DNA of 32,000 bases from Gemmata obscuriglobus. GTDB lineage: Bacteria; Planctomycetota; Planctomycetia; Gemmatales; Gemmataceae. This document shows, one piece after another, positions 5,400 to 32,000 of the stretch. A program made the position numbers and the translations under genes. A model generated the notes under the pieces. That model saw only the letters and a program-made list of their open reading frames with translations, did not search any database and was not told where the DNA came from. Position 1 is the stretch's first letter. Each line of letters begins with the position of its first letter. Location of the stretch: the NCBI RefSeq assembly GCF_008065095.1, contig NZ_CP042911.1, positions 8,820,001 to 8,852,000 of the forward strand, written 5' to 3'.

Positions 5400-7727
5400 C
5401 TACTTGCGGCGCTTCCGCGGGCGCGGGGGGCGGCCGGGAGTGGGGAGAGCGTCGCCCCCGTCATCTTCCGTTTTCGGCCGCGCGTCGGCCAGTCTCAGGT
5501 CCAGCATCCGCCGCGGCAAATCGACCCGGGCGACGACCACCCGGACGCGGTCCCCCAACCGGAACCGCCGTTGCGTCCGCCGCCCCTCTAACGAGTGCGC
5601 GCTTTCGTCGAACCAGTAGTAATCGTCCACCAGCGATGAGATGTGCACCAGCCCTTCGGCCGGGAACCGCTCCGCCTGCGCGAAGAAGCCGTAGTCCGCG
5701 ACGCCCGTGATGACCGCGTCGAGCTGCTCGCCGAGTCTGCCGCTCAGATAGCTCAGGATGCGGGTCTTCACCAGCTCGCGCTCCGCCGTCTCGGCCCGCC
5801 GCTCCATCTTCGAGCAGTGCTCGCCCAGCGCCGCCAGTTCCTCCGTGTTCGCACTGGCCGATCCGGTCCGGACCCACTTGTCGAGGAGCCGGTGGACCTG
5901 GAGGTCCGGGTAGCGGCGGATGGGCGAAGTGAAGTGGCAGTAGTGGTGGCTGGCGAGCGCGTAGTGCTCGTCCTGGACGGGCGAGTATGTGGCCTGTTTG
6001 AAGCTCCGCAGTAGCGCGAAGTGGAACGCGGCGCGCTCGGGCTTGTCGGCGGTCGCGTCCAGCACGCGCTGGAGTTCGTAGCGGTCCTGGGGGCGCTTGA
6101 TCGGGTGGCCGAGGATGGCGGCGAACTGGGCGAACGCTTCGAGCTTGTCCTCGTTGGGCGCCGGGTGGACCCGCCGCAGGAACGAGACCTCGTGCGCGGT
6201 GAAGTGTTCCGCGACGGCCTCGTTTGCCGCGAGCATGAACTCCTCAACGATCTGGTGGCTCAGGTTGTGTTCGGCGAAGTGCGCGCCGCTCACGCGCCCG
6301 TCGGCGTCGTACTCCAGCACCGCCTCGGGCATGGTGAGTTCGAGCGCGCCGCGCTTGAACCGCTTCTTGCGCAGGAGGAGCGCGAGGTCGCGCATCCGGC
6401 GGATCATGGGGAGCAGATCGGGGGCCGGACCTACCCCCCCCGGCCCCCCCTCCCTGAAGGGAAGGGGGGAGTCAGCAGGTGGCGCGCCCGGCGCATCGGT
6501 GACGTTGGCGGCGCGCGAAGGGTCTGTCTCCCCCCTTCCCTTCAGGGAGGGGGGGCCGGGGGGGGTAGGTCCGCTTGCCAGTTCGTCCAGCAGCGCCTGG
6601 ACCTCGTCGTAGGTGAACCGCTTGCGGTTCCGGATCGCGCCGTTGAAGAACTCCACGTGCCCCTTTTGAAGCCCCGGGGTGAACTCCATCCGCACGGTCT
6701 TCACGTACCGGACCTTGCCCTCCTGCAGCGACGCCAGCCCGTTGGAGATCAGCTCCGGGAACATCGGGATGACCTTCTGCGGCAGGTACACGCTGGTGGC
6801 GCGCTTCCGCGCCTCGGCGTCCAGCGCGCCGCCGGGCTTCACGAACGCCGCCACGTCCGCGATGTGGACCGTCAGCACCCAGTGCTTCGTCTTCGGGTCG
6901 ATGGTGACGCTGACCGCGTCGTCGTAGTCCTTCGCGTCGGGCGGGTCGATGGTCACGACCAGCTCGTCCGTGAAGTCCGTGCGGCCGTGCAGGTCCGCTT
7001 CCGAGAACTGGCTCGCGACCTCCCGGGCCTCGGCCAGCGCGCTTTCCGGGAACGCTTCGGGCAGCCCGAACGCGCGGATAACCGAGAGCGTATCGACGCC
7101 GGGCGCGCCGTTCGGCCCGAGCACCTCCGCGACGACGCCCTCGCCACGCGCGTCGGGCGCCGGGAACCGCAGCATCTCGATGACGACCTTGTCCTGCGGC
7201 TTCGCCCCCTTCGCCCCCGGGTCGCCGACCGCGATGCTGTGCGCGAACAGGTTGCCGTCGACGCGCACGAGGGCGGTCCGGTCGCGCTCGAAGTAGGTGC
7301 CCACGAACGTGCGGGTGGCCCGCTCCAGCACGCGCACGACCTCGCCGGCGGCGTCCTTGAGCCGGGTCGCCGTGCGGGTGACCCGGGCCATCACCTCGTC
7401 GCCCGTGGCGGCGTCGAGGGCCTTGTCCTCGCGGATGTAGATCTCGGGCTGCGGCGCCCCGTCGACGGCGTGCGGCCGGACGAACCCGTGCCCCGCCGCG
7501 GAGCGGCGGTACACGCCGGCGACGGTGCCGTGAACGTCCGCGACGCGCAGCGTGTTGTTCTTGGCGAGCGCGAGCCGCCCGGTGCGGACCAGCTCGCGCA
7601 CCGTCTTGCGGAACTCGGGGTAGTCACTCTCGGGCAGGTTGAGCCGCTTGAACAGCGGCTTCGCCTTGAGCGGGACGTAGCTCTTCGCGGTCACCGCGTG
7701 GAGCACTTTCGCGAGAATTTCAGCCAT
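5400..7727 (-). CDS. rnr: Ribonuclease R (3'-5' exoribonuclease: cold-shock/OB, RNB and S1 domains)
   Basis: RNB motifs are present (TIDPPDAKDYDDAVSV, SVYLPQKVIPMFPE, HYALASHHYCHFTSPIRRYPDLQVHR). There is a C-terminal S1 domain and a basic tail. The start was chosen at MAEILAKV (ATG 7725-7727) rather than the upstream ORF-track start at 7868. Confidence 0.9.
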   Translation of the reverse strand: MAEILAKVLHAVTAKSYVPLKAKPLFKRLNLPESDYPEFRKTVRELVRTGRLALAKNNTLRVADVHGTVAGVYRRSAAGHGFVRPHAVDGAPQPEIYIREDKALDAATGDEVMARVTRTATRLKDAAGEVVRVLERATRTFVGTYFERDRTALVRVDGNLFAHSIAVGDPGAKGAKPQDKVVIEMLRFPAPDARGEGVVAEVLGPNGAPGVDTLSVIRAFGLPEAFPESALAEAREVASQFSEADLHGRTDFTDELVVTIDPPDAKDYDDAVSVTIDPKTKHWVLTVHIADVAAFVKPGGALDAEARKRATSVYLPQKVIPMFPELISNGLASLQEGKVRYVKTVRMEFTPGLQKGHVEFFNGAIRNRKRFTYDEVQALLDELASGPTPPGPPSLKGRGETDPSRAANVTDAPGAPPADSPLPFREGGPGGVGPAPDLLPMIRRMRDLALLLRKKRFKRGALELTMPEAVLEYDADGRVSGAHFAEHNLSHQIVEEFMLAANEAVAEHFTAHEVSFLRRVHPAPNEDKLEAFAQFAAILGHPIKRPQDRYELQRVLDATADKPERAAFHFALLRSFKQATYSPVQDEHYALASHHYCHFTSPIRRYPDLQVHRLLDKWVRTGSASANTEELAALGEHCSKMERRAETAERELVKTRILSYLSGRLGEQLDAVITGVADYGFFAQAERFPAEGLVHISSLVDDYYWFDESAHSLEGRRTQRRFRLGDRVRVVVARVDLPRRMLDLRLADARPKTEDDGGDALPTPGRPPRPRKRRK
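6426..6573. repeat. Perfect 46-bp inverted repeat pair with a 56-bp spacer, lying in frame inside rnr
   Basis: 6426-6471 (cggacctaccccccccggccccccctccctgaagggaaggggggag) is the exact reverse complement of 6528-6573. It encodes PTPPGPPSLKGRGE...SPLPFREGGPGGVGP between the OB region and the RNB domain. Confidence 0.85.
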
Positions 7728-7806
7728 AGATTTTTGGCGCCCCTGCCCTCGCGGGCGGGGCGTCAGAGCGGCAACGAGCCCGGCCCGCGGGGCCGGCTCG
7801 CCGGGG

Positions 7807-8811
7807 TCAGTCGTACCCGCCGCCGGACTCGCCGAACAGGTCGCCGAAGGCCCCGCCCTTGTAAACACGGCGGCCCAGGTTGTGGTTGTACGGCGTCCAC
7901 GCGGTCGGGTTGTTGCGGTCGTCCTTCAGCTCGCGCAGCACCATGTGCATGCGCGTGTCCATCGCGTCGATCAGGTGCAGCAGCATCGCCTCGGGGGTCA
8001 TCGGCACCTTCGGGCTGCCGTAGCTCAGCTCCCCGTGGTGGCTCAGGATCATGTGCTGGAGCCGGAGCATCAGCTCCCGCGGGAACGGCTCCCCGGTCAG
8101 GTCCGGCACCTTGGCCGCGGTCTCGGCGAGCATCGCCACGGCGATCGGGATGTGCCCGACCAGTTGCCCCTCGTCGGAGTACCCGAAGGCGCGCGAGAAG
8201 GTCAGCTCCCGGGTCTTGCCCGCGTCGTGCAGCAGCACGCCCATCAGCACGAGGTCGCGGTCCGTGCCGGGGTACAGCGCGAGCACCTTGTCCGCGATGT
8301 CCATCATCGAGACCGTGTGCTCCAGCAGCCCCCCCACGTAGGCGTGGTGCAGCTTCACCCCGGCCGGGCACGTCGCGAACGCCCGCATGAACTCGTCGTC
8401 CATGAGGAAGCACTCGGCGAGCGCCCGCAGGTGCGGGTTGCCGAGCCGGAGCAGGTAGCCCTTCAAGCGCTCCGTGAGCTTCGGGATGCTGTGCTCGGTC
8501 TGCGGCAGGAAGTCGGCGAACTCGACCTTCTGCGGCTCCACCCGCTCGACTGCCGTCAGGATGGCCTGCAGCGCGCCCTGGAACAGTTGCACCTTGCCGG
8601 TGGCGAACAGGAAGTCGCCGGGGTCGAACCCGCGCGCGATGCTGTCGCCGGCGTTCCACATGCGGCCCTGGATGCCGCCGGTGCGGTCCCGCAGTTCTAC
8701 AAGGAGGTACGGGTTCCCGTTCCGGTTCGCGCGGAGCTGCTTGTCCGTCACGAGGTACACGTCTTCGAGGTTGTCCCCGTCGCGGAGCTGTTCGACGAAA
8801 CGGCGGGCCAT
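7807..8811 (-). CDS. YhaM-like 3'-5' exoribonuclease (N-terminal OB fold plus HD domain)
   Basis: The start is MARRFVEQL (ATG 8809-8811). OB-like [25 protein letters not shown] is present, with HD-domain motifs [12 protein letters not shown] and VLLHDAGK, and LSHHG. Confidence 0.7.
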
Positions 8812-14120: not shown

Positions 14121-14312
14121 CGAGTGGCGGTTAACGGCCGCAAGGCGATGATGCACCGCCTTGTAGCATGGCGTAATGTGTGGTCATGTGAAATGATTGT
14201 CTGCTGAGTAAGTGTGTGATCTGACGCCGTTTCACTCGACGACGAGCTGTGAAGCGACTTGGGACGGAGTTGCAGGGCCGTCGTTGAGTCTCAATTCTGT
14301 ATTCGGTGAGAG

Positions 14313-18796: not shown

Positions 18797-18870
18797 AACG
18801 GTTCCGGGGCGGCGCCCCCTGGAACGCACCATTGGCGGTGCGTTCCAGGGGGCGCCGCCCCGGAACCGTT
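18797..18870. repeat. Perfect 34-bp-stem hairpin (REP-like palindromic element)
   Basis: aacggttccggggcggcgccccctggaacgcacc (18797-18830) is the exact reverse complement of 18837-18870, with the loop attggc. It lies between the trxA stop and the coiled-coil gene start, and no U-tract follows on either strand. Confidence 0.85.
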
Positions 18871-20894: not shown

Positions 20895-21884
20895 TTACGC
20901 CAATCGCAGCCGTTCACCGAGTCGCCGCAGCCCCTCTTCAACTGACACCTTGGGCTCATAACCGAGGTCCCGCCGGGCCGCACTAATGTCGTACCAGTGC
21001 GACGTGGACATCTGGTTCGCCACGAACCGCGTCATCGGCGGTTCGCCTGGAAGCCGGAACAACCAGTACACCGACTCCAGCACCCGCCCCGCCAGCCGCG
21101 CCTTCCACGCCGACACGCGAGCTGTGACCGGCGGCAATCCGGCTTCGGCCAAAATGCGGTCAACGAACGGCCACAACTCCACCGGTTCGCCGTTTGAGAT
21201 GAAGTACGCCTTCCCGGCTGGCGCGGTGCCGATGTCGAGCCGATCCGCGGCATCGAGTTGCGACTGCGCAGCGTTGTCGATGTACGTCACATCGACCTTG
21301 GCCGGTCGGTTGCCGATCCGCTTCAGTTTCCCGGCGCGAGCGGAGTCGATGATGCGCGGGATCAGGTGCGGGTCCCCCGGCCCGAAAATCAGGTGCGGCC
21401 GGAGCGACACCGTCGCGAGGTCCGAACCGTTCGCGGCCAACACGGCCTTCTCGGCTTTCGCCTTCGTCTCGGGGTACGCGGCGTCGAAGTGCTTCGGGTA
21501 CGGGAGCGACTCGTTCGCCCCCTCGTTGTCGCCGCCCGCGTGAACCACGCTCGGCGTCGAGGTGTATACGAGGCGCCGGACGCCATGCGTCTTGCACGCT
21601 GCGATCACGTTCTGCGTGCCCACAACGTTGGTGCTGTAGTAGGCCGAGTAGCGCCCCCACACGCCGGCCTTCGCCGCGACGTGGAACACCACATCGCAGC
21701 CGGACACCGCACGCTCGACCGACTCCAAGTCCGAGAGGTTGCCAAGTGACTGTTCGACGCCGAGTTCGTCGAGCCACGGGTACGCCGAGCGGGTGAACGA
21801 GCGGACGGAGTCGCCCCTTTGCCGAAGCAGCCGCACGACCGCCCCGCCGAGAAACCCGCCGCCGCCCGTAACGACCGCCTTCAC
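20895..21884 (-). CDS. oleD: OleD: NAD(P)H-dependent 2-alkyl-3-oxoalkanoate reductase (3-beta-HSD / extended SDR family)
   Basis: MKAVVTGGGGFLGGAVVRLL is a Rossmann GxxGxxG motif. The 3-beta-hydroxysteroid-dehydrogenase-like core is present (VVFHVAA, YSTNVVGTQNV, LVYTSTPSV, YPETKAKAE). The GTG start at 21882-21884 overlaps the oleC stop (GTGA). It is the last gene of the oleABCD synteny. Confidence 0.8.
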   Translation of the reverse strand: MKAVVTGGGGFLGGAVVRLLRQRGDSVRSFTRSAYPWLDELGVEQSLGNLSDLESVERAVSGCDVVFHVAAKAGVWGRYSAYYSTNVVGTQNVIAACKTHGVRRLVYTSTPSVVHAGGDNEGANESLPYPKHFDAAYPETKAKAEKAVLAANGSDLATVSLRPHLIFGPGDPHLIPRIIDSARAGKLKRIGNRPAKVDVTYIDNAAQSQLDAADRLDIGTAPAGKAYFISNGEPVELWPFVDRILAEAGLPPVTARVSAWKARLAGRVLESVYWLFRLPGEPPMTRFVANQMSTSHWYDISAARRDLGYEPKVSVEEGLRRLGERLRLA

Positions 21885-23659
21885 GCTTGTTCCCCGGGAC
21901 TCCAGTTCGGACCAAATAACTTATCGGCCTGCACCGCGAGCTTCTCGCGAAAGATCTTGGAGTTGTGCCGCACGTCCATCGGGAACTCCGGGTGCAGCAG
22001 GTACGTGACCACGCGGCGTGCTGCCGCAGAGCGCTGTCCAATACTAGACATGAGCCCGTCCAGCGCCGGACCGGACGGTCCCCCGACCGCGTCAAAGAGG
22101 GTGCTCCCCGGCTCGCTGCTACGGTCCAGTTCGACCCAGAGCACGGGGTACGTAATTCCGCGGCGAGTCACCCCCACCAGAGCCGTCCGGCGCACCCCCG
22201 GGACGGTATTAAAGATCGGCTCAACCATGTCGGTAAACAGTGTGCCGTGGGGCGTCACGACCCGGTGCGATTTGCGCCCACAGAACCAGAGCCGCCCTTG
22301 CGCGTCAAAATACCCGACGTCACCCATGCGGTGCAGAACTTCGCCGGTTTTCGGGTCGCGAATCTTCGCCAACTTGGTCGCGTCGGGGCGGTTGTAGTAC
22401 AGTTGCGTCACCACCGGCCCGCGGACCACGAACTCGCCCACCTCCCCCTGCGGCACGAGGAGCGAATCGTCCCACTCGGCGACCGGCTGGTCGCTGATGC
22501 GGATCACCCGCACCTCCACCCCCGGCACGGGCCGCCCGACGCACACGCCCTTACCTTGGTCGGTCAGGTGCCGCGTTTCGCCCAGGATCTCACGGCTACC
22601 GATGTTCGCAACCGGCAGCGCTTCGGTTGCCCCGTAAGGGGTGAACACCTCGACGCCGTCGGGAAGAAGGCGAACGAACCGCTCGAGTGACGCTGCTGAC
22701 GCCGGAGCCCCAGCGGAGATAACCCTTTTGAGCGTCTCAAGTCGGCGGGTCTCCGGTCCCGAGTCGGGGGCCGCACTGTTTTCTGACTTGGGACCGGAGA
22801 CCCGCCGACTTGGGACCGTTAATTCCCCCAACCGGCGGATCACGGCCGGCGAGCCGAACAGGCTCGTGACGCCGAACTGCTTGATTTGCGCCGCGGCCTT
22901 ATGAGGGTCGAGGCGGGCCGGGCGGCTCGCGTCCATGTCCGGGATCACGCACGTCATCCCGAGCGCCGGGCCGAACAACGCGAACAGCGGGAACGTACAG
23001 AGGTCGATCTCGCCCGGCGCGATGCCGTAGGTGGCCTTCAGCAGTTTCACTTGCGCGTCGAAGATGCCGTGGACGTACACCACCCCCTTCGCCACACCGG
23101 TGCTGCCGCTGGTGAACAGGACCGCCGCCGGCTCCGTCGCCTGCGAATCCGGCACCGGGTACGGCCCGCTCCCGCGCCCGGCCTTGCGCACCCGCGCGAG
23201 CGAGGTGTCGCAGAAGAACCGCCACCGGGACACGTTCACGGTGGCGCGAACGGTGCCCTTCGCCCACCCCAGCACGCGCCGCGCCGCGTGCGCCTTCGCG
23301 ACCCCGATGAACGCTTCCGGCCCGGCCTCCGCAAGGCACTTGCCGAGGTTCCTGACGCCCATTCCGGGGTCGATCAGCACCGGGACGGCGCCGACCTTGA
23401 AAAGAGCAAAGGTTAGGGCGAAGAAGTCCGGCGACGGCGGCACCATCAGGGCCGTGCGCGTGCCCCGGGCGACGCCCGCCGACGCGAGCCCGTGGGCGAT
23501 CGCGTCGGAGTCGGCGTTCAGCTCGCGGAAGGTGATCGCCCGGTGTTCGGTCGGGCCGTCGCGGCGCACCCGGCCGCGGGGCGCGTAAACCGCCACCTGC
23601 GTTGGGTGCTCCGCGGCCATCCGGACCAAATGCGAGGCGACGTTGAGGGAGGTGTTCAT
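21881..23659 (-). CDS. oleC: OleC: AMP-dependent synthetase family, beta-lactone synthetase
   Basis: This is a 592-aa ANL-superfamily protein (LFTSGSTGVAKGVVY, ISAGAPAS, FTPYGATEALP, HRMGDVGYFDAQGRLWFCGRK). It sits between oleB and oleD. Confidence 0.85.
   Translation of the reverse strand: MNTSLNVASHLVRMAAEHPTQVAVYAPRGRVRRDGPTEHRAITFRELNADSDAIAHGLASAGVARGTRTALMVPPSPDFFALTFALFKVGAVPVLIDPGMGVRNLGKCLAEAGPEAFIGVAKAHAARRVLGWAKGTVRATVNVSRWRFFCDTSLARVRKAGRGSGPYPVPDSQATEPAAVLFTSGSTGVAKGVVYVHGIFDAQVKLLKATYGIAPGEIDLCTFPLFALFGPALGMTCVIPDMDASRPARLDPHKAAAQIKQFGVTSLFGSPAVIRRLGELTVPSRRVSGPKSENSAAPDSGPETRRLETLKRVISAGAPASAASLERFVRLLPDGVEVFTPYGATEALPVANIGSREILGETRHLTDQGKGVCVGRPVPGVEVRVIRISDQPVAEWDDSLLVPQGEVGEFVVRGPVVTQLYYNRPDATKLAKIRDPKTGEVLHRMGDVGYFDAQGRLWFCGRKSHRVVTPHGTLFTDMVEPIFNTVPGVRRTALVGVTRRGITYPVLWVELDRSSEPGSTLFDAVGGPSGPALDGLMSSIGQRSAAARRVVTYLLHPEFPMDVRHNSKIFREKLAVQADKLFGPNWSPGEQA
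22738..22812. repeat. 75-bp palindromic element in frame inside oleC
   Basis: caagtcggcgggtctccggtccc (22738-22760) is the exact reverse complement of gggaccggagacccgccgacttg (22790-22812). Pairing extends inward 4-5 bp and outward 3 bp after a mismatch. The 75 bp equal 25 codons. Confidence 0.85.
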
Positions 23660-23672
23660 GTGGCGCCGCGGC

Positions 23673-24638
23673 TCAGGTCAGCGGGTGCCGCTGGAGGAAC
23701 TCCCACACCCGCGTGATCGCCAGTTCGCCCGCGTCGTCGAGCAGGTAGTGCCCGCAGTCGGGCCAGGTGTGAACTTCCGCGTGCGGGAAGTGCCGCTGCC
23801 ACTCTTCGAGGAAGTGGCGGTCGAACACGAAGTCCTTCATTCCCCACAGCAGCAAGGTCGGGGTGTCGCGGAACTTCTCCAGCGAGGCCGCGGCGCCGCT
23901 GACGATGTCGTAACCCGGATCGGACGGCGCCAGCGGGATCGTTTGCACGAATTTGAGCACCGCCACCCGGTGCGCCGGGGTGTCGTAAGGCGCGAGGTAG
24001 CCGGCCTTCACGTCCGCGGGGAGCGGGCGCTTCGTGGCACACCACTTCGCGGCGAACTTGCAGAACCAGTTGCGCCGGGTGATGAGCCACGCGCCGAGTT
24101 TGGTGTTCCGCCCGAGCCACAGCGACGGCGGCAGCTTCTTGCCCGCCGGCAGGGGGAACCCCCCGGTGTTCATCGCCACGATCCGCTTCACGCGCTCTGG
24201 ATGCCGAGCGGCGAACCCCATCCCGATCATTCCGCCCCAGTCGTGTACCACCAGCGTGAGGTCGCGCGTCAGCCCGCGTTCCTCAAGGAGCCACTCCAGA
24301 TCGTCGATGCGGCTTTTCAGGGAGTAGTCGTACCGGTCCGTTCCCGGTTTGTCGGAGAGCCCGCAGCCGATGTGGTCCGGAACGACGCAGCGGTACGACT
24401 CGCGCAGCGACAGCACGAGGTTGCGGTAGTAGAAGCCCCAGGTGGGGTTCCCGTGGAGCATCACGACCGTGTCGCCGCGGCCCTCGTCGAGGTACGCCAT
24501 CCGGAGCCCGCGCCGCGTCGCCACGCGCGAGACGAAGGGGAACAGCGGCATCGCCGGGTTCGGAAACGGCGGCCCGTCGTCATCCGGCAGGGCGTTCGTG
24601 CGGAGCTGGAGCGAAGCGGGGTCCGAGGTGTTGCTCAT
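23673..24638 (-). CDS. oleB: OleB: alpha/beta hydrolase (haloalkane-dehalogenase-like), beta-lactone decarboxylase
   Basis: Motifs are MAYLDEGRGDTVVMLHGNPTWGFYYR, PDHIGCGLSDKP, and LVVHDWGGMIGMG with the Asp nucleophile. Its stop lies 13 bp before the oleC start. Confidence 0.85.
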   Translation of the reverse strand: MSNTSDPASLQLRTNALPDDDGPPFPNPAMPLFPFVSRVATRRGLRMAYLDEGRGDTVVMLHGNPTWGFYYRNLVLSLRESYRCVVPDHIGCGLSDKPGTDRYDYSLKSRIDDLEWLLEERGLTRDLTLVVHDWGGMIGMGFAARHPERVKRIVAMNTGGFPLPAGKKLPPSLWLGRNTKLGAWLITRRNWFCKFAAKWCATKRPLPADVKAGYLAPYDTPAHRVAVLKFVQTIPLAPSDPGYDIVSGAAASLEKFRDTPTLLLWGMKDFVFDRHFLEEWQRHFPHAEVHTWPDCGHYLLDDAGELAITRVWEFLQRHPLT

Positions 24639-24924: not shown

Positions 24925-26082
24925 CTACCACTCCAGCCCGAGCATCAGGCAGTTCAGCCCGCTGCCGATGCCCAGGAAACCGACCCGGTCGCCCGGCCGG
25001 AGGAACTCCCGTTCCTCCGCAATGGCCGCGGTGATCGGCAGCGAGACGGTGCCAATGTTGCCCAGGTACTCGAACGTGCTGAAGTCCTTCTCCGGCGAAA
25101 CGCCGATCGCCCGCAGCACCGCGTCGCGGTGCCCGGCGCCCACTTGGTGACAAATCACCTTATCAAGGAAGTCCGGCCGCCAGCTCAGTTTCGTCAGGAA
25201 CTTCTGCCAGGTGCGGTGGCCGAGTTCGACGCCGTACTTCAGCACCTCGCCGGCGTGCGTCTCCATGAACGGAATCATCACGTGCCGCATCCCGAGGTCG
25301 ACGCCCTTCTGCACCAGCCCCGTGGCGTTGTCGACGCTCTTCTGCATCAGCCCCGCGGCGTTCGCTCCCAGGACCCGCTCCACGGTGCCGACCGCCGAGG
25401 GGAGCAGCGACTGGAGCCCCCACCGGCACAGGTTGTGGTACTGGGGCGCGTTCTGGGTCGCCCCGCCGAGCAGCTTCCGCCGCTTCTCGCGCGACAGCTC
25501 CGCGCTGACGACCAGCACCGCGACCGCCCCGGACCCGCCGGTGAGCGTCGCGATGCTCTCGCGGAACAGTTCGACCGACTTCGTCCGCACCATGCGGTCG
25601 ATCACGTTCTCGTTGATCTCCCGCGCCGTCTCCGCCGAAACCACGAGCCCCGCCTGCGCCTGTCCGAGTTCGATCTTGTTCGCGACCTCGACGATGCCGT
25701 TCAGCACGCCCAGGCACGCGTTGCTCAGGTCGAAGATCGCGGCGTTCGGGTTGATGTTCAGCTCGTGGGCCACGGCGCACGCGGTGGCCGGCTCGAAGTT
25801 CTCCCGGCACACGCCCGCGTAGATCAGCACGTCGATTTCCGACGCGGAGATGTCCGCCGCGGCCAGCGCTTTACGGCCCGCGGCGGCCGCGCCCTTCGAG
25901 AGCGGGTAGCCGGGCTCCCACCACCGGCGCTCGCTGATGCCCGTGAGCAGTTCCAACTGCCCCGGTGACATGTTCAGCGATTTGTACACCGGCGCGAGCC
26001 GCGCTTCGAGTTCCGCGGTGGAAACCACCACCGGCGGCAGCTCGTACCCGATCGCTTCGAGGTGAACGCGGTTGTATTTCAT
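24925..26082 (-). CDS. oleA: OleA: thiolase-superfamily (FabH-like) acyl-CoA head-to-head Claisen condensing enzyme
   Basis: This is a 385-aa FabH-like protein with active-site DLSNACLG (Cys codon at 25714-25716), CHQVGAGH and GNIGTVSLP. It is the first gene of the oleABCD order and starts 46 bp after the PKS stop. Confidence 0.85.
   Translation of the reverse strand: MKYNRVHLEAIGYELPPVVVSTAELEARLAPVYKSLNMSPGQLELLTGISERRWWEPGYPLSKGAAAAGRKALAAADISASEIDVLIYAGVCRENFEPATACAVAHELNINPNAAIFDLSNACLGVLNGIVEVANKIELGQAQAGLVVSAETAREINENVIDRMVRTKSVELFRESIATLTGGSGAVAVLVVSAELSREKRRKLLGGATQNAPQYHNLCRWGLQSLLPSAVGTVERVLGANAAGLMQKSVDNATGLVQKGVDLGMRHVMIPFMETHAGEVLKYGVELGHRTWQKFLTKLSWRPDFLDKVICHQVGAGHRDAVLRAIGVSPEKDFSTFEYLGNIGTVSLPITAAIAEEREFLRPGDRVGFLGIGSGLNCLMLGLEW
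25297..25362. repeat. 2 x 33-bp in-frame tandem duplication inside oleA
   Basis: Unit 1 is 25297-25329 (gtcgacgcccttctgcaccagccccgtggcgtt). Unit 2 is 25330-25362 (gtcgacgctcttctgcatcagccccgcggcgtt). They match at 30/33 positions and encode NAAGLMQKSVD / NATGLVQKGVD. Confidence 0.85.
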
Positions 26083-26128: not shown

Positions 26129-29100
26129 CTATTCTAGGGTGAAATCGGTCATCTGGTAGATAACCCGCCCGTCCACGGTCAGGAACCCGTTGGCGGTGAG
26201 CCGGTGATTATCGTCGTCCGCGGCGACGATTTCTAGCACAACCGTGACCTCGTGGTCCTTCGGCAGCACCTGCCCGCGGTACACCCACGTGTGCGGCACG
26301 TTTCGGGCCACCGTGTGCCACGGCTTCGCCGGCGCCCCCCACCGCTTCCACGCCGCGTACTTCAGCAACTGGAGGAACGACTCCAGCCCCAGCGACCCGG
26401 GCCACACCGGGTCCTGGTAGAAGTGCGCCTTGAAGAACCAGAACTCCGGATCGACCTTGATGGTCCCCACCAGGAGCCCGAGCCCCTTCGCGCCGCCGTC
26501 CGGGACGTACGCGGTGACCCGGTCCACCATGCGCAGCATCGCCCCGGGGAACGGCGGCTCGTGCGGGAGCGCGTCGCTCCTGGCTCGCACCAGCTCCTGC
26601 TCGTTGGGCCACGGCACCCGGGCTTCGCGGATGCCGACCTGGTTCGCCAGTGCCCCCTTCGTGAAGAACCCGAAGTAGGTGGTGCCCTTGTACATCGGCC
26701 CCTGAGCGTCCTCGACGAGCATGTCGTAGTGCTGAATGATCATGCCCGCAGAGTTCGACACGCCCGTCATCTTCACGGTGGTCGCGAGCGTCCCGGTGGC
26801 CGGCGTCACCGCGCGGAACTGGGTGCCCTTCCCGCCGAGGTTGCGGAAGCTCAGGTCGTCCTTGCTGGTGAGCGCCGACCCGCAGTACGCGGCGAGCCAC
26901 CCGCACGGCTGGAGGGCGATCTCCAACAGGACGCTGAACGGCATGTTCTCGCAGCGGTTCTCGCCGAAGTACCACTCGTCCGGCGGCACGGCGTAGAGGG
27001 CGGTGCAGCTCGCGCCGGCCTTCAGCACGAACGGCTCGCCGGACACGGCGGTCACGCAGTCGAGGAACTGGTACGGCGGCCCCGGCAGGCGAGCGAGCAC
27101 CCGCTCGGAGTCGAACACCTTGTAGGGCTCGCCGAACGCTTCGGACGGGTTGCCGTTCGAGTACGCCATGATTTTGGCGGAATCGTACAGCGGAGCGGCA
27201 GACAACCCACCCCCCGGCCCCCTCCCTGCAGGGAGGGGGAGAGAAGACACTTCCGAACCGGTTCGTGGACCGGATGGGGTTCGCACCGCGTCGGAACGCC
27301 CCGCTCCCTTCAAGGGAGTAGGTTCTGCCATCCCGGCCCAGATCACATTCAGCTTCTCGCGCGAGAGCCCCGACATGCGCAGCGTCATGTTGGTGATCTC
27401 GACGATCGGCTTGCCGTCCGCGTACATCAGCGCGTCGGCGACGCAGAACGGCTCCGGCCGGTAGCCCAGTTCCTTCACCGTCACCTCGTAGGTGACGGTC
27501 TTGGTCGTCGCGAGCACCTGCCCGCGGCACTTCAGCCGGCTGTTGACGCCCGGCAGCGGCTCGCACACCACGTCGTCGGCCTCGCCCACCCAGCCGAGGC
27601 GCATCAGCAGCACGCGGAGCGTGTGCAGGCAGCACTCGTACATGAGCGTCCCCGGCATCACTTGATCGTCCACGAAGTGACACGTCAGGAACCAGTCGTC
27701 CGGGTGAATGTCGAACTCGGCGCGCACGAAGCCGGTGCCGAACCGCCCGCCCGCGGGTTCGATCAGGGGCACACGGTCCACGAGCCGGAGCATCCCGCCG
27801 GGGATGGTGGCCGGTCGCGTCAGCCGCGCCCGGGCGAACGCCGGCCCGAACGCCCCCACGAGGTCGCCCCCGCGCAGGGCGTCCACCTGTTGCGCGGTCA
27901 GCGCGCACACCGTTTGGGGCACGAGGTCCGCCCAGTCGTCGGGCCTCTTGCCCGGGAACCGCTTCTTGTCGAGCGCGGTCTGAACGATCCCCTTACCGGC
28001 CGCGAGCGCATCCGCGGTGAAGAACCCGGCTACGCCGTTGCGCATCGTGATGAGGGGCTCGCCGTTGACCGTTCCGTCGAACCAGAAGTGGAACAGCCAG
28101 GAATCGCCCTGCTTCACGAACTTGTCGATGTGGATGTCGTAGGTCACCGTTTCGCCGACCTGCGGCAGCCCGCGGTGGAACGACACGACCGCGTCGAGCA
28201 GCCGGTACACGGCCAGCCCGCGGGTCTCGAAGTCGATGCCGAGGTACCCCGAGAGGAACAGGTCGGCCTGCCCCGCCTCGACGCAGATCGCGGTCGGGAT
28301 GCGGCCCGATTGCAGGTACCAGCGGTCCGCGCGGACGGTGTGGTGCGTCACCACGCGCCCGCTCGTCATCGACTTCGGCTCGCCCTCAATGAGGCTGATG
28401 CTGTCGACGAGTTGGAGCGGGCCGTCCGGCAACCGGACGCGGGTCGGGAAGGAATCGACCTCGGCGAACAGCGGCCCGAGCGCGTCGGCGATCTTGCCGG
28501 CCGCGTAGGTGCAGCACTGCTCGAAGGTCAGCGCGCGGGGCGGCTCCAGCGGGGACGCCGGAGGGGTCAGCCACACGAGCGACGAGACCGGTTCGCTCGC
28601 GCCCGCGCCTCCGCGCGTCCACGCATCGAGCAGCGAGGTTTGGAACCTCAGCACCCCGGCGGCAGACTCCATCAACTTGCCGCTGACACGCAGGAACGCC
28701 TCTTGCGCCTGCATGTTGAGCACCTGCACGTTTGCGACCGACTCAATGACCGGGGCAAGAGACGGCACCAGTTCCGGAGCGAGCACCGGAACGATGTGTG
28801 GGCTCGCCACCTCTTCGGGCTGAGCCGCCGGAGCGAGAGGTTGGCTCCGCAAGCGAACGTGAGGCTCGGGGGATGAACGAAGCGCCTCGGTGGGAGGAAC
28901 GTGTGGAGTCGGCTCCGGTGTGCCAGCGGCCACGACCGGCGCGACGCGCTCCTCCCCGTCCGTCTCGATCGGCACCGCGCTCGGCGCGGCTTCCCGCTTC
29001 GTGAGAGGTGTCAATACCACGGCCGGGGGCACCGGGCGCAACCCCACCGGCACCACAACCACGTTGCGCCGCGCCGGTTCGGGCTCCCGGTGCGCAACGC

Positions 29101-32000
29101 ACCGCGTTTCCGTACCGTACAGCGCGGCGAGATCGACCGGCAACCGCTCTGCCGCCAGGTGCGCCACGAGGCGAACGACCTGCGACACCGCGTCCGGCTT
29201 CGCGGCGTGGGCGGCCCGGGCCAGGTGCCGGCGGTCGCCCAGGATCGCCGAAATCATGCGGGTGCACGAGCCCCCCGGCCCCACTTCGACGAACGCGCGC
29301 ACCCCGTCGCGGTACGCCGCCTCGATCACCCGCGGCACGTCGATCAGCCCGACCAGCCCCGACGTGATCGAGTCCGCGCACGCCAGTTCGCCGGGCCGGT
29401 AGCTCTTGCCCCAGGCGCCGCTGTACACGGTCAGGGCGTGGGCCGGCGGCGTCACCGGCAGCATGTGCAGGTCGTGGTACGGCCCGAACACCGGCTTCCC
29501 GGCCTCGCAGTGCGCGAGCGTCACGCCCTCCAGAAGCATCACGGGCTTACCGACCGCCGCCGCGAGTTTCTCCACGTCGGCCCGCTTCCCACCGATCACG
29601 CACTCGCCCGGGGTGTTCACGATCAACAGGTACGCGAGCAGGCCCGGGCGCAGCGCCGCCGTCACGTCGTCGGCGCCGGCGGAAATCACGCCGCTGACCC
29701 AGTCCACCGGCTCACCGGCCGGAACGCCCCAGTACACCCGTGCGGAATCATACGGTGGGGCGAGGTCCGACGCGAACAGGGTCGAAACCTGCATCCGCCG
29801 GTACATTTCGTCGCGCTCGCGCCACAGACGCACCCCGAACAGGCCGGCCGACTCGCCGAGGCTCAGCCCGATCATCGCGTCGCAGCGGACGCCGAGCGCG
29901 GCCACAACGTCCGCCACCAGCGAGCCGACGGTCACCTGCCCGAACATCAGGTCTCGCGCCGGCGCGTCGCCCGCGCGCCCGTGCCAGAAGAACTGCGGGC
30001 TGAACTGGTCCCGCAGGCGCTGGTTCTCGGCGTCCTGTCGGCGCACCACTTCGGGCCACTGGGCGGCGAGGTCACGGCCCATGCCGTCGAACTGGTTCCC
30101 GGACCCGGGGAACACGAGCGCGACCTTCGCCCGCGTCCCGAGCGGCTTCGGGCTGTAGAACACGCGGTCCCGGAGCGCCTGGCGGGCCGTCGCCGGGAAG
30201 GGGCTGGCGGGGTCCGCGTGGAGCGACGATGCGGCGAACGAGATCTGTTCGGCGAGTTCCGCCCCTGAGCGCGCCGCGAACCCGACCGCCAGCTTCCGCC
30301 CGGCCCCCGGCGCCGCCCGGAACCACCCCCGGGCGACGGCCTCAACGTTGCGCCCGGCCCGGTCGTGCGCGAACGCCGACAGGGCCTCAATGCCCGCGAG
30401 CAGTTCGGCCGGCGTGTCGCCCTCGACCACGAACGCCGCTTCCGCCCGCGCGCCGAGCGGCTGCGCGAGTTCGGCCGGAACCCGCTGCGCGGGCTCCTCC
30501 AGCAGGAAAGCGAAGTGCGACCCGTCTGCGCCGGACGAGTGCACGCACGCGCGCCGCGGCCCGTCGGCCCGGTTCCGTAACCAGAACGTCGGCTCCTGGG
30601 GGCCGCGGGCGCCCCGGCCGCCGGGCGCCTCGATCAAAGAACCGGCCACGCCCCCCGGGAGCACTTCTTGATACAGCGCGACGCACGCCTCCAGAACCGC
30701 CACCGCCCCCGACGCGGCACCCGCCTCACCGACCCGCTCGGCCGTCCCCCCGAACACGACCGCCGACCCGAGCGGCAGCCCGGCATCGGCCGCGGCGCGA
30801 GATTGTGCGTCCCCCTCGGTCGATGCGACCCCAACTCCCTTAATAACGGCGTACACGCGGTCGCCGTCGCGCTCGGCGTCGGCGAGGCGTTTCAGCACGA
30901 GCGCGACCGCGCCGTCGGCCGGGAGCGACGCCTCGCCCGGGAGCACCAGCCGCGGGTCGCCGGCCAGGTCCACCCCGCCCACCAGAACGCGGTCCAACTC
31001 TCTGGCCTGGAGGGCACGAACCCCCAGTTCCAGCGCCCGAGCCCCGGAGCCCTCTTCGCTGCAAACCGTGTGGCTCGGCCCGCCGAAATGGAACGTCCGC
31101 GCGACGCGGCTCGCGGCGATGCTCCCGAGCGCGCCCATCGTCCGGTTCGCCGTCAGCGGCGGGGACGCTTCGTCGGGGCCGGCACCGCTCCCGATCGCGG
31201 CCCAGCGCAGGTGGAAGTTGGTGGTGTTCAGGTCCAACCCGAGCCCGACGAACACGCCGGTCGCGGGGTCACCGTCGGCGCGGGGGGCGTACCCCGCGTC
31301 GGCGAGCGCGTCCGCGGCCACGCGCAGCATCAGCAACTGCTGCGGCAGCGTCTCCTCCAGTTCCTTGGGCGGCACGCGGAACTTGTCGATGGGCAGCGCC
31401 AGCTCGTCGATGTAAAACCCGGGCGGGCACGGCTCGTCCGCCAGCGCCCAGCCGTTCAGTTTGATACCGGGCTCGGCCGTCCCCCCGCTGAACAACTGCT
31501 CTTGCAGCGCCCGGGCGTCGGCCCACGGCCCCACGTGCGCCGCCGCCCCCACCACCGCGACCGGCTCGCGGGGTTCGCTGGCGCGCGACCGGGCGGCCGC
31601 CTCGCGCGTTCCGACCGCGATGAGGCGCGGCGTTTTGCTCGCGCCCGAGCGCGGCGGCAGACCGGTCCACTCCTCGACGAGCAGGTGCGCGTTCACCCCG
31701 CCGAACCCGAACCCGCTCACCGCCGCCCGGCGCGGTTGGGTGGCGGACGAACGCCCCCAGCGCTCGGCGGCACGCAGCACCCGGAACGGCCCGCCGTCGT
31801 AGCTCAGCCCCGGCGCCGGGGTCGCGAAGTTCGCCTGCGGTGGGAGCTGCTCGTGCTTCATCGCGAGCAGCACTTTGGTCAGCGCCGCGGCGCCGGCCCC
31901 GGTGAGCAGGTGCCCCACCGTCGACTTCACCGAACCGATCACGCACTGCCCGGGCGCCCAGTCGGAACCGCCCCACAGTTCCCGCAGGCTGTCGAACTCG
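26129..32000 (-). CDS. PfaC/Pfa3-like polyunsaturated fatty acid synthase subunit: KS (C-terminal part visible), CLF, AT and two FabA-like DH domains; the 5' end lies beyond the window
   Basis: The frame stays open to base 32000 (..EFDSLRELWGGSDWAPGQC-VIGSVKSTVGHLLTGAGAA is the KS C-terminus). The CLF has no active-site Cys (GGPSHTVCSEEGSGARAL). The AT has FPGSGNQ and GLSLGE (29852-29869). The FabA-type DH motifs are CHFVDDQVMPG (His codon 27677-27679) and AHFYQDPVWPGSLGLE (His codon 26423-26425). Confidence 0.9.
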   Translation of the reverse strand, partial: EFDSLRELWGGSDWAPGQCVIGSVKSTVGHLLTGAGAAALTKVLLAMKHEQLPPQANFATPAPGLSYDGGPFRVLRAAERWGRSSATQPRRAAVSGFGFGGVNAHLLVEEWTGLPPRSGASKTPRLIAVGTREAAARSRASEPREPVAVVGAAAHVGPWADARALQEQLFSGGTAEPGIKLNGWALADEPCPPGFYIDELALPIDKFRVPPKELEETLPQQLLMLRVAADALADAGYAPRADGDPATGVFVGLGLDLNTTNFHLRWAAIGSGAGPDEASPPLTANRTMGALGSIAASRVARTFHFGGPSHTVCSEEGSGARALELGVRALQARELDRVLVGGVDLAGDPRLVLPGEASLPADGAVALVLKRLADAERDGDRVYAVIKGVGVASTEGDAQSRAAADAGLPLGSAVVFGGTAERVGEAGAASGAVAVLEACVALYQEVLPGGVAGSLIEAPGGRGARGPQEPTFWLRNRADGPRRACVHSSGADGSHFAFLLEEPAQRVPAELAQPLGARAEAAFVVEGDTPAELLAGIEALSAFAHDRAGRNVEAVARGWFRAAPGAGRKLAVGFAARSGAELAEQISFAASSLHADPASPFPATARQALRDRVFYSPKPLGTRAKVALVFPGSGNQFDGMGRDLAAQWPEVVRRQDAENQRLRDQFSPQFFWHGRAGDAPARDLMFGQVTVGSLVADVVAALGVRCDAMIGLSLGESAGLFGVRLWRERDEMYRRMQVSTLFASDLAPPYDSARVYWGVPAGEPVDWVSGVISAGADDVTAALRPGLLAYLLIVNTPGECVIGGKRADVEKLAAAVGKPVMLLEGVTLAHCEAGKPVFGPYHDLHMLPVTPPAHALTVYSGAWGKSYRPGELACADSITSGLVGLIDVPRVIEAAYRDGVRAFVEVGPGGSCTRMISAILGDRRHLARAAHAAKPDAVSQVVRLVAHLAAERLPVDLAALYGTETRCVAHREPEPARRNVVVVPVGLRPVPPAVVLTPLTKREAAPSAVPIETDGEERVAPVVAAGTPEPTPHVPPTEALRSSPEPHVRLRSQPLAPAAQPEEVASPHIVPVLAPELVPSLAPVIESVANVQVLNMQAQEAFLRVSGKLMESAAGVLRFQTSLLDAWTRGGAGASEPVSSLVWLTPPASPLEPPRALTFEQCCTYAAGKIADALGPLFAEVDSFPTRVRLPDGPLQLVDSISLIEGEPKSMTSGRVVTHHTVRADRWYLQSGRIPTAICVEAGQADLFLSGYLGIDFETRGLAVYRLLDAVVSFHRGLPQVGETVTYDIHIDKFVKQGDSWLFHFWFDGTVNGEPLITMRNGVAGFFTADALAAGKGIVQTALDKKRFPGKRPDDWADLVPQTVCALTAQQVDALRGGDLVGAFGPAFARARLTRPATIPGGMLRLVDRVPLIEPAGGRFGTGFVRAEFDIHPDDWFLTCHFVDDQVMPGTLMYECCLHTLRVLLMRLGWVGEADDVVCEPLPGVNSRLKCRGQVLATTKTVTYEVTVKELGYRPEPFCVADALMYADGKPIVEITNMTLRMSGLSREKLNVIWAGMAEPTPLKGAGRSDAVRTPSGPRTGSEVSSLPLPAGRGPGGGLSAAPLYDSAKIMAYSNGNPSEAFGEPYKVFDSERVLARLPGPPYQFLDCVTAVSGEPFVLKAGASCTALYAVPPDEWYFGENRCENMPFSVLLEIALQPCGWLAAYCGSALTSKDDLSFRNLGGKGTQFRAVTPATGTLATTVKMTGVSNSAGMIIQHYDMLVEDAQGPMYKGTTYFGFFTKGALANQVGIREARVPWPNEQELVRARSDALPHEPPFPGAMLRMVDRVTAYVPDGGAKGLGLLVGTIKVDPEFWFFKAHFYQDPVWPGSLGLESFLQLLKYAAWKRWGAPAKPWHTVARNVPHTWVYRGQVLPKDHEVTVVLEIVAADDDNHRLTANGFLTVDGRVIYQMTDFTLE
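27201..27325. repeat. Hairpin-pair element in frame in the linker between the two DH regions of the PfaC-like gene; related to the rnr element
   Basis: It contains the perfect 22-bp palindrome ccccctccctgcagggaggggg (27218-27239). It also contains the 12-bp palindrome cgaaccggttcg (27254-27265) and the hairpin ctcccttcaagggag near 27304-27318. The ends resemble the rnr element arms. It encodes EPTPLKGAGRS...SSLPLPAGRGPGGG. Boundaries are approximate. Confidence 0.6.

Follow-up and report, generated by a model that had tools for sequence, protein, structure and literature searches.

The question raised by this locus is how a near-perfect palindrome of about 85 nt (22734–22816 of the window, the whole 32,000-nt stretch of Gemmata obscuriglobus DNA analyzed here) has come to be translated within oleC, and whether it represents, as had been proposed from a sequence-only reading of the same DNA, one of several families of frame-preserving palindromes active in this genome. 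The two arms, 32 nt each, are 94% complementary (30 of 32 pairs) and include an exact reverse-complementary core of 23 nt (22738–22760 against 22790–22812); each strand has one occurrence of the 22-mer AAGTCGGCGGGTCTCCGGTCCC, where 0.01 would be expected. The direct repeat GACTTGGGACCG is found at 22785–22796 and at 22807–22818, with a spacing of 22 nt, and the layout of the palindrome on the coding strand is A-B-A, loop, A′-B′-A′. The oleC sense strand folds with an energy of −62.8 kcal/mol (z −8.9) and the antisense strand with −78.3 kcal/mol (z −11.1), in either case with none of 200 shuffles as good. The arms, exact core, direct repeat, inserted peptide (..TVPSRRVSGPKSENSAAPDSGPETRRLETLKRVISAGAP.. 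in the OleC translation) and antisense ORF that had been described were all rechecked, and all hold. The palindrome is open in four of the six reading frames, and the plus-strand ORF that was noted to read through it is indeed present among the ORFs with the translation given in Table 1; it results from the palindromy together with the high G+C, and nothing indicates that it is a gene. An assembly artefact is ruled out, because the palindrome is also present in the assemblies of JC673 and JC717, that is, in three independent assemblies with small differences. A role as terminator or promoter is likewise unsupported: neither arm is followed by a T-run, the terminator consensus is matched only on the antisense strand, by a small alternative stem that includes TGTTTT of the loop and is not conserved in relatives, and no other such features are conserved in them. 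Rfam 15 contains no family that matches at the gathering threshold (best 41.7 bits against 83), the sub-threshold matches being generic hairpin models (miRNA precursors) on both strands.

Table 1. Features of the oleC locus and its palindrome (positions of the window)
Feature	Positions	Strand	Size, sequence or model	Remark
oleD (2-alkyl-3-oxoalkanoate reductase type)	20895–21884	−	OleD model, 439 bits	directly downstream of oleC
oleC (olefin beta-lactone synthetase type, ANL adenylate-forming fold)	21881–23659	−	592 aa	
oleB-like alpha/beta hydrolase	23673–24638	−		directly upstream of oleC
oleA-like thiolase-fold condensing enzyme	24925–26082	−	PRK09258	
Antisense ORF	22641–22904	+	SRRVSGPESGAALFSDLGPETRRL	reads through the palindrome
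Left arm	22734–22765	+ (as written)	GTCTCAAGTCGGCGGGTCTCCGGTCCCGAGTC	3′ arm on the oleC coding strand
Loop	22766–22784	+	19 nt, GGGGGCCGCACTGTTTTCT	encodes OleC residues SENSAAP
Right arm	22785–22816	+ (as written)	GACTTGGGACCGGAGACCCGCCGACTTGGGAC	holds the direct repeat GACTTGGGACCG twice
Translated insert, OleC V282–R306	22742–22816 (codons)	−	VPSRRVSGPKSENSAAPDSGPETRR	predicted coil

The assignment of the host gene to oleC within an oleA-B-C-D cluster is upheld by family models and gene context, the oleA-oleB-oleC-oleD arrangement lying wholly on the minus strand as part of a pfa-oleABCD cluster. OleC passes the broader model PRK09274 (697 against a cut-off of 478) but stays below the cut-offs of the equivalog models NF045786 (649 bits against 900) and NF045785 (612 against 850), the scores being lowered by the insert together with the divergent planctomycete lineage. 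No transposase was found among the window ORFs that were scanned.

Relative to canonical OleC, the palindrome is, as had been expected, an in-frame insertion and not a stretch of conserved residues. The spacing between the FGSPA and ISAGAP motifs is a constant 33 residues in distant OleCs (40–52% identity), which are without the insert, against 52 in the window OleC, and it ranges from 28 to 138 residues across Gemmataceae. The window OleC is longer here by a net 19 residues than the canonical 33 and by 23–24 than the shortest Gemmataceae alleles (28–29); the earlier figure of exactly 25 codons is correct for the span of the perfect arms plus loop, but not for the gain over homologues. When OleC is aligned by HMMER with ANL structures and families, the alignments are interrupted at about residues 274–305. 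In the AlphaFold2 (AF2) model, the insert is placed between helix 271–281 and strand 312–315 of the N-terminal ANL subdomain, the strand preceding the ISAGAP motif, and is modeled as coil with pLDDT below 50 for residues 285–301. The insert is thereby predicted to sit as disordered coil in a permissive surface loop, a placement taken from the AF2 model, the PDB containing no OleC structure.

The same palindrome is found at the same place of oleC in JC673 (Gemmata algarum) and JC717, which makes three strains of the Gemmata algarum group in all. Between the window and JC673/JC717, 6 of about 85 nt differ; two of these differences constitute a compensatory change of a C-G to an A-T pair, synonymous on both sides, and the remaining four include 4 amino-acid changes in the 25 insert residues, against an identity of 97.8% for the OleC core of those strains. 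The insertion is orthologous in the three strains. When the arm core GTCGGCGGGTCTCNGGTCCC was searched in 185,579 species-representative genomes as an exact 20-mer with one free position, a test that diverged or partial copies would escape, paired occurrence was restricted to oleC of JC673 (the draft genome of a relative, about 96% identical), and the five other genome matches were single, unpaired and from unrelated taxa. Neither the 32-kb window nor about 380 kb of related loci contained a second copy, and no copy was found by BLASTN against plasmids or by a pattern scan of viral contigs. A match of 11/12 to the A unit at 14256–14267 is a lone motif without a partner arm, and therefore attributable to chance. 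At the peptide level, a search with the four open frames concatenated gave no matches, though the JC717 OleC was expected at E ~5e-4 from a local phmmer control, and the rnr-type peptide included as a positive control gave one candidate only, the method being weak for short, low-complexity inserts. An exhaustive phmmer search with the 30-aa insert against 1.84 billion representatives, low-powered because representatives clustered at 50% identity seldom carry a lineage-specific insert, returned the single match P0122, which was rejected as an in-frame copy, being a spurious translation of a GC-rich tandem repeat. With a core confined to the JC673 oleC, no second copy and orthology in three strains, membership of the oleC palindrome in a family active in this genome is not sustained; the proposal also fails on its own terms, by which a unit confined to a single locus of the genome would count against it, as judged by exact-core matching, although divergent or intergenic copies in the source genome would escape such matching. 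What does stand is that its sequence is unrelated to the rnr element, and that several kinds of frame-preserving palindromes are present in the genome, in rnr, in oleC and in a pfa-like ORF.

The oleC site is a hot spot for palindromes, with loss and replacement between close relatives. Approximately 90 of 120 Gemmataceae OleC homologues (~75%) are above the canonical spacing and thus have an insert at this site, the insert being absent from about one quarter of Gemmataceae OleCs and from all distant OleCs. At least seven mutually unrelated types of palindrome occupy it across lineages, and 16 of the 17 strong inverted repeats found in 67 kb of oleC are located here. P0031 and P0021 have different inserts in spite of a core that is 95.5% identical, and the empty allele P0063, nested among carriers, retains scar-like remnants of both arm ends. 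Certain types recur in other genes: the rnr type, besides rnr itself, is present in the pfa-like ORF and in the oleC genes of L010 and L016, and the GGCGAGCGGGG type in pfa of JC717 and in oleC of L018–L021, while the site in the pfa-like ORF holds different palindromes in the window and in JC717. Alignments of filled with empty alleles (L002, L015 and L089 against L090) reveal no target-site duplication, but replacement and scar-like remnants instead. The right arm end of the palindrome overlaps the host L-x-T-L codons and resembles the empty-allele sequence ACTTCCGACGCT.

Related palindromes built of CAAGTC/GACTTG units are present at the identical oleC codon position in other Gemmataceae (L002, L015, L014 and L089). 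The arm units are (CAAGTCN)4–5 in L002 and L015, CAAGTTT in L089 and the 22-nt A-B-A repeat in the window, and the tandem units of one arm are mirrored exactly in the other. Stem identity amounts to 92% between the window and JC673, 91% between L002 and L015, 68% between the window and L002, and 48% between the window and L014, at gene identities of 74–89%, whereas rnr-type arms are about 95–98% identical between hosts whose OleCs are about 70% identical. From these identities, the CAAGTC-type palindromes diverge at least as rapidly as the host gene, and their peptide is poorly conserved. Complementarity between the arms is nevertheless kept through two-sided changes: across 31 pairs, 86% of cells are paired against 76.5% in shuffles (0/500), two-sided change is seen in 13 of the 31 pairs against 7.2 in shuffles (0/500), and slid controls have 21–46% of cells paired. 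This covariation is equally compatible with a palindrome that is resident and corrected and with a fresh perfect palindrome in each lineage. On the sense strand, 12 G·U cells stand against 10 C·A cells, so that neither RNA strand is favored. The hairpins of the window, L002 and L015 are very stable, at about −60 kcal/mol; decayed inserts also occur (L014, with a fold z of −2.7, and L013, L025 and L035, without a palindrome). Carriers of the AAGTC type are scattered over a neighbor-joining OleC tree, a distribution that repeated site-specific insertion or recombinational spread fits as well as ancient residence with many losses.

We consider it fairly likely that the oleC palindrome is a resident, translated palindrome of the broad kind known from Rickettsia (RPE-like) and from REPs within genes (see below), situated in a permissive OleC surface loop and not detectably multi-copy; it looks like an old resident of an insertion-prone spot, not a copy of a repeat now spreading. 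The insert would be a neutral or mildly costly passenger, tolerated because the loop is exposed, and the first palindrome may either have arrived as a mobile element or have grown in place. Its symmetry would be upheld in the DNA itself, there being no sign of selection on a particular RNA strand; the probable routes are correction templated by the hairpin (template switching), slippage involving the internal direct repeats, or removal of variants that no longer form the hairpin. An existing palindrome may in turn make the site a preferred spot, or "nest," for the landing or replacement of further palindromes. A wider and more tentative proposal, which may or may not prove right, is that Gemmataceae possess such palindrome nests as single in-frame positions in OleC, RNase R and a PUFA-synthase subunit, occupied in turn by unrelated palindromes that come, go and replace one another even among strains about 96% identical, with hairpins attracting the next element and arm-to-arm correction keeping the symmetry.

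A palindrome that was never mobile but grew in place, the native L-x-T-L segment being turned into an inverted duplication by template switching (fold-back synthesis) and slippage and then extended by tandem growth of CAAGTC units mirrored in both arms, seems unlikely, even though it would accommodate the exact mirroring of short tandem units, the overlap of the right arm end with the L-x-T-L codons and its likeness to the empty allele, the occurrence of the AAGTC type at oleC only, and the lack of target-site duplication. The stretch that resembles host codons is short and may be the scar of a deletion or reflect selection for L-x-T-L, no intermediate stages were identified, and the same site receives the foreign, dispersed rnr-type and GGCGAGCGGGG-type elements, so that insertion is a demonstrated route there. 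Those two types, clearly dispersed and landing in frame, speak for the opposite view, in which a second family of mobile, frame-preserving palindromes (MITE, REPIN or RPE-like), dispersed and currently active in this genome, has placed one of its copies, the oleC palindrome, in oleC; its nearly perfect arms, its four open frames and the scatter of AAGTC-type carriers on the OleC tree point the same way. We regard this origin as quite unlikely, since by exact-core matching the arm core has no second occurrence in JC673 or other species-representative genomes, the window and the ~380 kb of related DNA contain no copy, three strains carry the palindrome as an orthologous insertion in almost unchanged form, the related palindromes are known only from the oleC site and their divergence follows that of the host gene, in contrast to the homogeneous rnr type, and target-site duplications are absent from the filled-versus-empty comparisons.

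Selection of the stable hairpin itself, either in ole mRNA (for pausing between subdomains, for processing by RNase III or otherwise, or for stability) or as a DNA cruciform, would be served by any palindrome and would account for the gathering of unrelated types at a single position. The concentration of strong inverted repeats at this site, despite other low-confidence loops in the model, the pairing kept by two-sided changes while the peptide drifts, and the high stability of the hairpins are consistent with such selection. It is nonetheless improbable in view of the Gemmataceae and distant OleCs without any insert, the empty alleles nested among carriers and the decayed inserts; furthermore, G·U is not preferred over C·A on the sense strand, both arm mismatches of the window hairpin are C·A on the mRNA strand, and neither an Rfam family nor conserved terminator or promoter features were found. 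We give very little credence to a functional loop (e.g., a contact in OleBCD assembly) in which palindromy is incidental: the insert is kept in frame in three strains and lies in a predicted surface loop, but 4 of its 25 residues differ between strains with nearly identical OleC cores, the insert peptides show no relationship from one lineage to another and are often missing, and the region is modeled as disorder.

Palindromes inserted in frame are a textbook curiosity known from Rickettsia, and REPs occur within genes only now and then. Here the same outcome as in Rickettsia is encountered in a planctomycete, one gene position is used by a whole series of different palindromes across a bacterial family, and an apparently single-locus palindrome persists without copies, remaining symmetric while its sequence and peptide drift. 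If palindrome nests exist as proposed, free-living bacteria with large genomes would host an RPE-like process that operates on a large scale, involves several families, and continually adds and removes disordered protein loops. Should this be general, it would offer a tractable natural system for the targeting and maintenance of hairpin DNA and for how proteins gain and shed disordered loops, as well as a gauge of how such inserts disturb annotation and family-model scoring in GC-rich genomes. The OleC loop, which tolerates from 0 to ~110 extra residues, is also useful for engineering. Our literature search found no description of in-frame palindromes in Gemmata or Planctomycetes, only general REP, RPE and MITE papers.

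The oleC palindrome is worth comparing with several known systems. Quasipalindrome template-switch mutagenesis (the Ripley model) describes how mutations arise and does not define a class of elements; it would explain the arm-to-arm copying of changes and the mirrored tandem units without structural selection, although we know of no demonstration that it maintains an 85-bp coding palindrome over species-level divergence. MITEs (reviewed in PMC10969869) are likewise short, of non-coding origin and of inverted-repeat structure, and can insert in genes. However, the combination of terminal inverted repeats and target-site duplication that marks MITEs is lacking in oleC, where the whole element is a hairpin instead of terminal inverted repeats around a core, and no target-site duplication, parent IS or other copies were found. 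Intragenic REPs and REPINs (the GTAG- and CGTC-tagged REPs of Di Nocera et al. 2013, PMC3733652; Bertels and Rainey 2011, PMC3116915) are, like the oleC palindrome, inverted doublets able to form hairpins, and some REPs are found within ORFs, to whose products they add residues (PMC3733652); the recB site, at about the same point of which two Xanthomonas species have different REPs, resembles the oleC hot spot (PMC3733652). Unlike REPs, the oleC palindrome has no conserved GTAG/CGTC tag, CGTC being found at one end only (22732–22735), with CGGTC at the other and AGAGTC in L002 and L015, and by exact-core matching it does not show the high copy number and mostly extragenic location of REPs. The rnr-type element of the window has a GTAGG end. 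From the Rickettsia palindromic elements (RPEs; Ogata et al. 2000, as cited in PMC3733652 and PMC10969869), as these citing papers present them, the oleC palindrome differs in being shorter (85 bp), with arms of short tandem units, in its host, a free-living planctomycete with a large genome instead of an obligate intracellular alpha-proteobacterium, and in having no second copy by exact-core matching in a relative's draft genome, whereas RPEs are multi-copy within one genome. By analogy, on the other hand, both appear as palindromic DNA of ~100 bp lying in frame in conserved protein genes, and both would provide an extra surface segment, located in oleC by the AF2 model, that is compatible with protein function and retained in orthologues.

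The oleC palindrome proves to be an in-frame insertion in the encoded protein, a 592-residue ANL-fold adenylate-forming enzyme. The ORF is matched best by the model PRK09274 (697 bits, above cut-off), and two olefin β-lactone synthetase models reach 649 and 612 bits, both under cut-off; the name oleC is justified by the gene context, with an OleB-like hydrolase and an OleD-type reductase flanking the ORF and an OleA-like condensing enzyme and a PUFA-synthase-like (pfa-like) ORF upstream. The spacing from FGSPA(V/L) to ISAGAP is invariably 33 residues in OleCs 40–52% identical to the window's, 52 residues in the window protein, and between 28–29 (shortest alleles) and 138 residues in Gemmataceae, about 90 of the 120 closest homologues exceeding the canonical value. 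HMMER alignments to solved ANL enzymes and family models break at ~274–284 and restart at ~304–310. In the AlphaFold2 model (mean pLDDT 72.7; no OleC structure was found in the PDB), the insert residues 282–306 are predicted to form a coil loop between helix 271–281 and strand 312–315, with pLDDT <50 at residues 285–301. Spacing, alignment breaks and model together confirm the insertion proposed in the sequence-only reading; its "exactly 25 codons" describes the span of the perfect arms plus loop, but not the net gain, which amounts to 19 residues relative to the canonical spacing and 23–24 relative to the shortest alleles.

The arms (32 nt, 94% complementary, 19-nt loop), the exact 23-nt core and the direct repeat described earlier are all borne out by the sequence, and the 22-mer AAGTCGGCGGGTCTCCGGTCCC occurs once per strand (0.01 expected). 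On the coding (minus) strand, the element reads A-B-A, loop, A′-B′-A′ (A = CGGTCCCAAGTC, B = GGCGGGTCTC), and this arm layout explains the 12-nt direct repeat. The single strands fold at −62.8 kcal/mol (sense RNA, z −8.9) and −78.3 kcal/mol (antisense, z −11.1), the latter being stronger because both stem mismatches are G·U on the plus strand and C·A on the mRNA strand. An ORF on the plus strand with its mirror peptide does exist, as expected on the strand opposite a palindrome when G+C is high, and there is no sign that it is a gene. A terminator-like consensus match antisense to oleC corresponds to a small alternative stem within the element, with TGTTTT from the loop directly after it; this T-run is absent in the loops of three related loci (L002, L015 and L014).

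Coordinates of the features (window positions unless a locus is named)
Feature	Position	Strand
oleC	21881-23659	minus
oleC element, arms	22734-22765, 22785-22816	
oleC element, exact core	22738-22760 / 22790-22812	
Mirror-peptide ORF	22641-22904	plus
Terminator-like match	22748-22782	plus
Divergent oleC segment	approximately 21995-22126	minus
rnr palindrome (RNase R ORF 5400-7868)	6426-6573	minus
rnr-type at oleC	L016 2349-2481; L010 2337-2559	
Insert in pfa-like ORF (26129-31942)	~27192-27335	minus
JC717 insert at the same pfa-like site	L001 6364-6465	
Perfect palindrome with 34-nt arms	18797-18870; L001 14841-14910	
Palindromes upstream of oleC start	L009 1424-1485; L013 1430-1489; L014 1442-1491; L002 2931-2995	

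Over the ole/pfa region, the window DNA is ~96% identical to Gemmata algarum JC673 (L004) and Gemmata sp. JC717 (L001) and identical to neither, and the window OleC sequence had no exact match in a collection of 5.8 billion proteins. In both strains the element occupies the same position, in mutually identical copies, from which the window's differs at 6 of about 85 positions: one loop change, three unpaired stem changes and a compensatory C-G to A-T pair that is synonymous in both arms. Elsewhere in the window oleC, at residues ~512–555, JC717 and JC673 have a C-terminal segment unrelated to the window's DRSSEPGSTLFDAVGGPSGPALDGLMSSIGQRSAAARRVVTYLL, which resembles that of more distant homologues (P0008, P0015 and P0062) and suggests a recombination patch within oleC; the DNA alignment to both strains also breaks here.

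Palindromes at the identical codon position in L002 (a Fimbriiglobus MAG), L015, L014 and L089 encode alignable peptides with the pattern V.S..V.S.K.E...DL...L.TLKR. Between the window and JC673/JC717, 4 of 25 insert residues differ, against 97.8% identity of the OleC core, and the insert peptide is therefore weakly constrained; a functional peptide loop is a very unlikely rival reading. The arms of these AAGTC-type relatives consist of tandem CAAGTCN units mirrored as NGACTTG, and in L089 the unit is altered in mirrored form (CAAGTTT/AAACTTG), so that both arms changed together. In a six-sequence alignment with a consensus hairpin of 31 pairs, 86% of the cells are paired, against 76.5% in shuffles, and two-sided change is seen at 13 pairs against 7.2 expected, each value being reached by 0 of 500 shuffles; slid controls are 21–46% paired. 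The sense strand holds 12 G·U and 10 C·A cells, about equal, so neither RNA strand is favoured. A selected mRNA or DNA hairpin is likewise an unlikely rival.

The sequence-only reading had seen in the element a second family that appeared to be active in this genome; as a rival, an active dispersed family is unlikely. In a single exact-matching scan of 185,579 species-representative genomes, an inverted pair of the core common to all four arms (GTCGGCGGGTCTCNGGTCCC) occurs only at oleC of JC673, the other 5 matches being all single, in unrelated taxa and at about chance level. No further copy was found in viral contigs or plasmids, nor a second one in the window or about 380 kb of related loci; three peptide-level searches had no power by local controls. 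Since no other inverted pair or copy was found, the element is unique in the genome as far as exact matching on a close relative's genome can tell, an outcome that the sequence-only reading had itself named as refuting its family claim. Across lineages, AAGTC-type stem identity tracks host-gene nucleotide identity or drops under it (window–JC673, 92% and 89.0%; L002–L015, 91% and 84.1%; window–L002, 68% and 76.2%; window–L014, 48% and 74.6%). In contrast, rnr-type arms are ~95–98% identical between the window rnr copy and those at oleC of two metagenomic Gemmataceae (L016 and L010), whose OleCs are only ~70% identical to the window's, and hence form a truly dispersed, conserved family. The AAGTC-type therefore behaves as a resident co-diverging with the gene would, unlike a homogeneous mobile family; its proposed activity is thus not upheld, although its distinctness from the rnr element is. 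An origin in place is another rival of low probability. No clean target-site duplication was seen at the oleC site, where, in DNA of metagenomic loci, at least seven different palindromes occur.

These comprise the AAGTC-type, the rnr-type, TTTGCCCTCTCCCCTTGCGGGAGAGGGTGG (L011), the GGCGAGCGGGGGGCG-type (L018–L019), a relative of the latter with the GCGAGCGGGG end in common (L020–L021) and GGCGAACCCCG... (L063, L017), with weaker ones in L009 and L022. Among 37 loci (67 kb of oleC ORF), 16 of 17 strong inverted repeats (score ≥18) lie at the insert site, the exception being upstream of the true start codon. The carriers P0053, P0043 and P0066 have as their nearest neighbour an empty allele (P0063/L090), in which both arm ends have left short remnants; P0094, nested in this group, has a different insert, as do P0031 and P0021 relative to each other at 95.5% core identity. 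Turnover at the site is rapid. In some OleC alleles (P0017, P0048, L010), composite inserts of 100–138 residues anchor-to-anchor contain at least two palindromes, adjacent or one within another, as would be expected if one palindrome had inserted into another already there.

The arms of the rnr palindrome measure 50 nt and are 98% complementary, and its end bears a GTAGG tag (..GGGGGGGGTAGGTCCG), like GTAG-type REPs or REPINs. The pfa-like ORF behaves as oleC does. Between SREKLxxIW and LYxSAKIMAYSNG, the window carries a G/C-rich, rnr-like insert of 144 nt (..AEPTPLKGAGRS..LPLPAGRGPGGG..), and in JC717 the insert is another palindrome, 102 nt long and of the GGCGAGCGGGGGGCG kind; thus, strains ~96% identical hold different palindromes at the same in-frame site. 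A perfect palindrome with 34-nt arms and a 6-nt loop (AACGGTTCCGGGGCGGCGCCCCCTGGAACGCACC), kept in JC717 just downstream of a thioredoxin gene and apparently intergenic, may act as a terminator or be REP-like. Strong palindromes also lie between oleB and oleC, directly before the oleC start, in several Gemmataceae (examples, GTTAGCCGCGAGCCGCAGGCGAGCGCG; one in L002 is GTAG-tagged), and add more REP-like families to this operon.

Altogether, the best-supported interpretation is that oleC carries a translated palindrome of the RPE or intragenic-REP kind, resident in a permissive OleC loop and not detectably multi-copy, and that this palindrome is old in relation to the G. algarum strains and shared with other Gemmataceae by descent or recombination. 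Its symmetry may be kept at the DNA level, through template-switch correction, slippage among internal repeats or loss of asymmetric variants, and the existing hairpin might make the site preferred by further palindromic elements. It affects the protein as Rickettsia palindromic elements (RPE) do. Intragenic REPs are documented, and in two Xanthomonas species a single recB site is occupied by different REPs (PMC3733652). The element works like these families, with membership not shown: of their defining traits, it lacks the three that were examined, namely multiple copies, GTAG or CGTC tags and a target-site duplication. Literature searches returned no account of in-frame palindromes from Gemmata or other Planctomycetes. 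The phenomenon belongs to a kind already known, here in a new phylum; it is unusual in the persistence of the palindrome at a single locus and striking in the shared insertion site.
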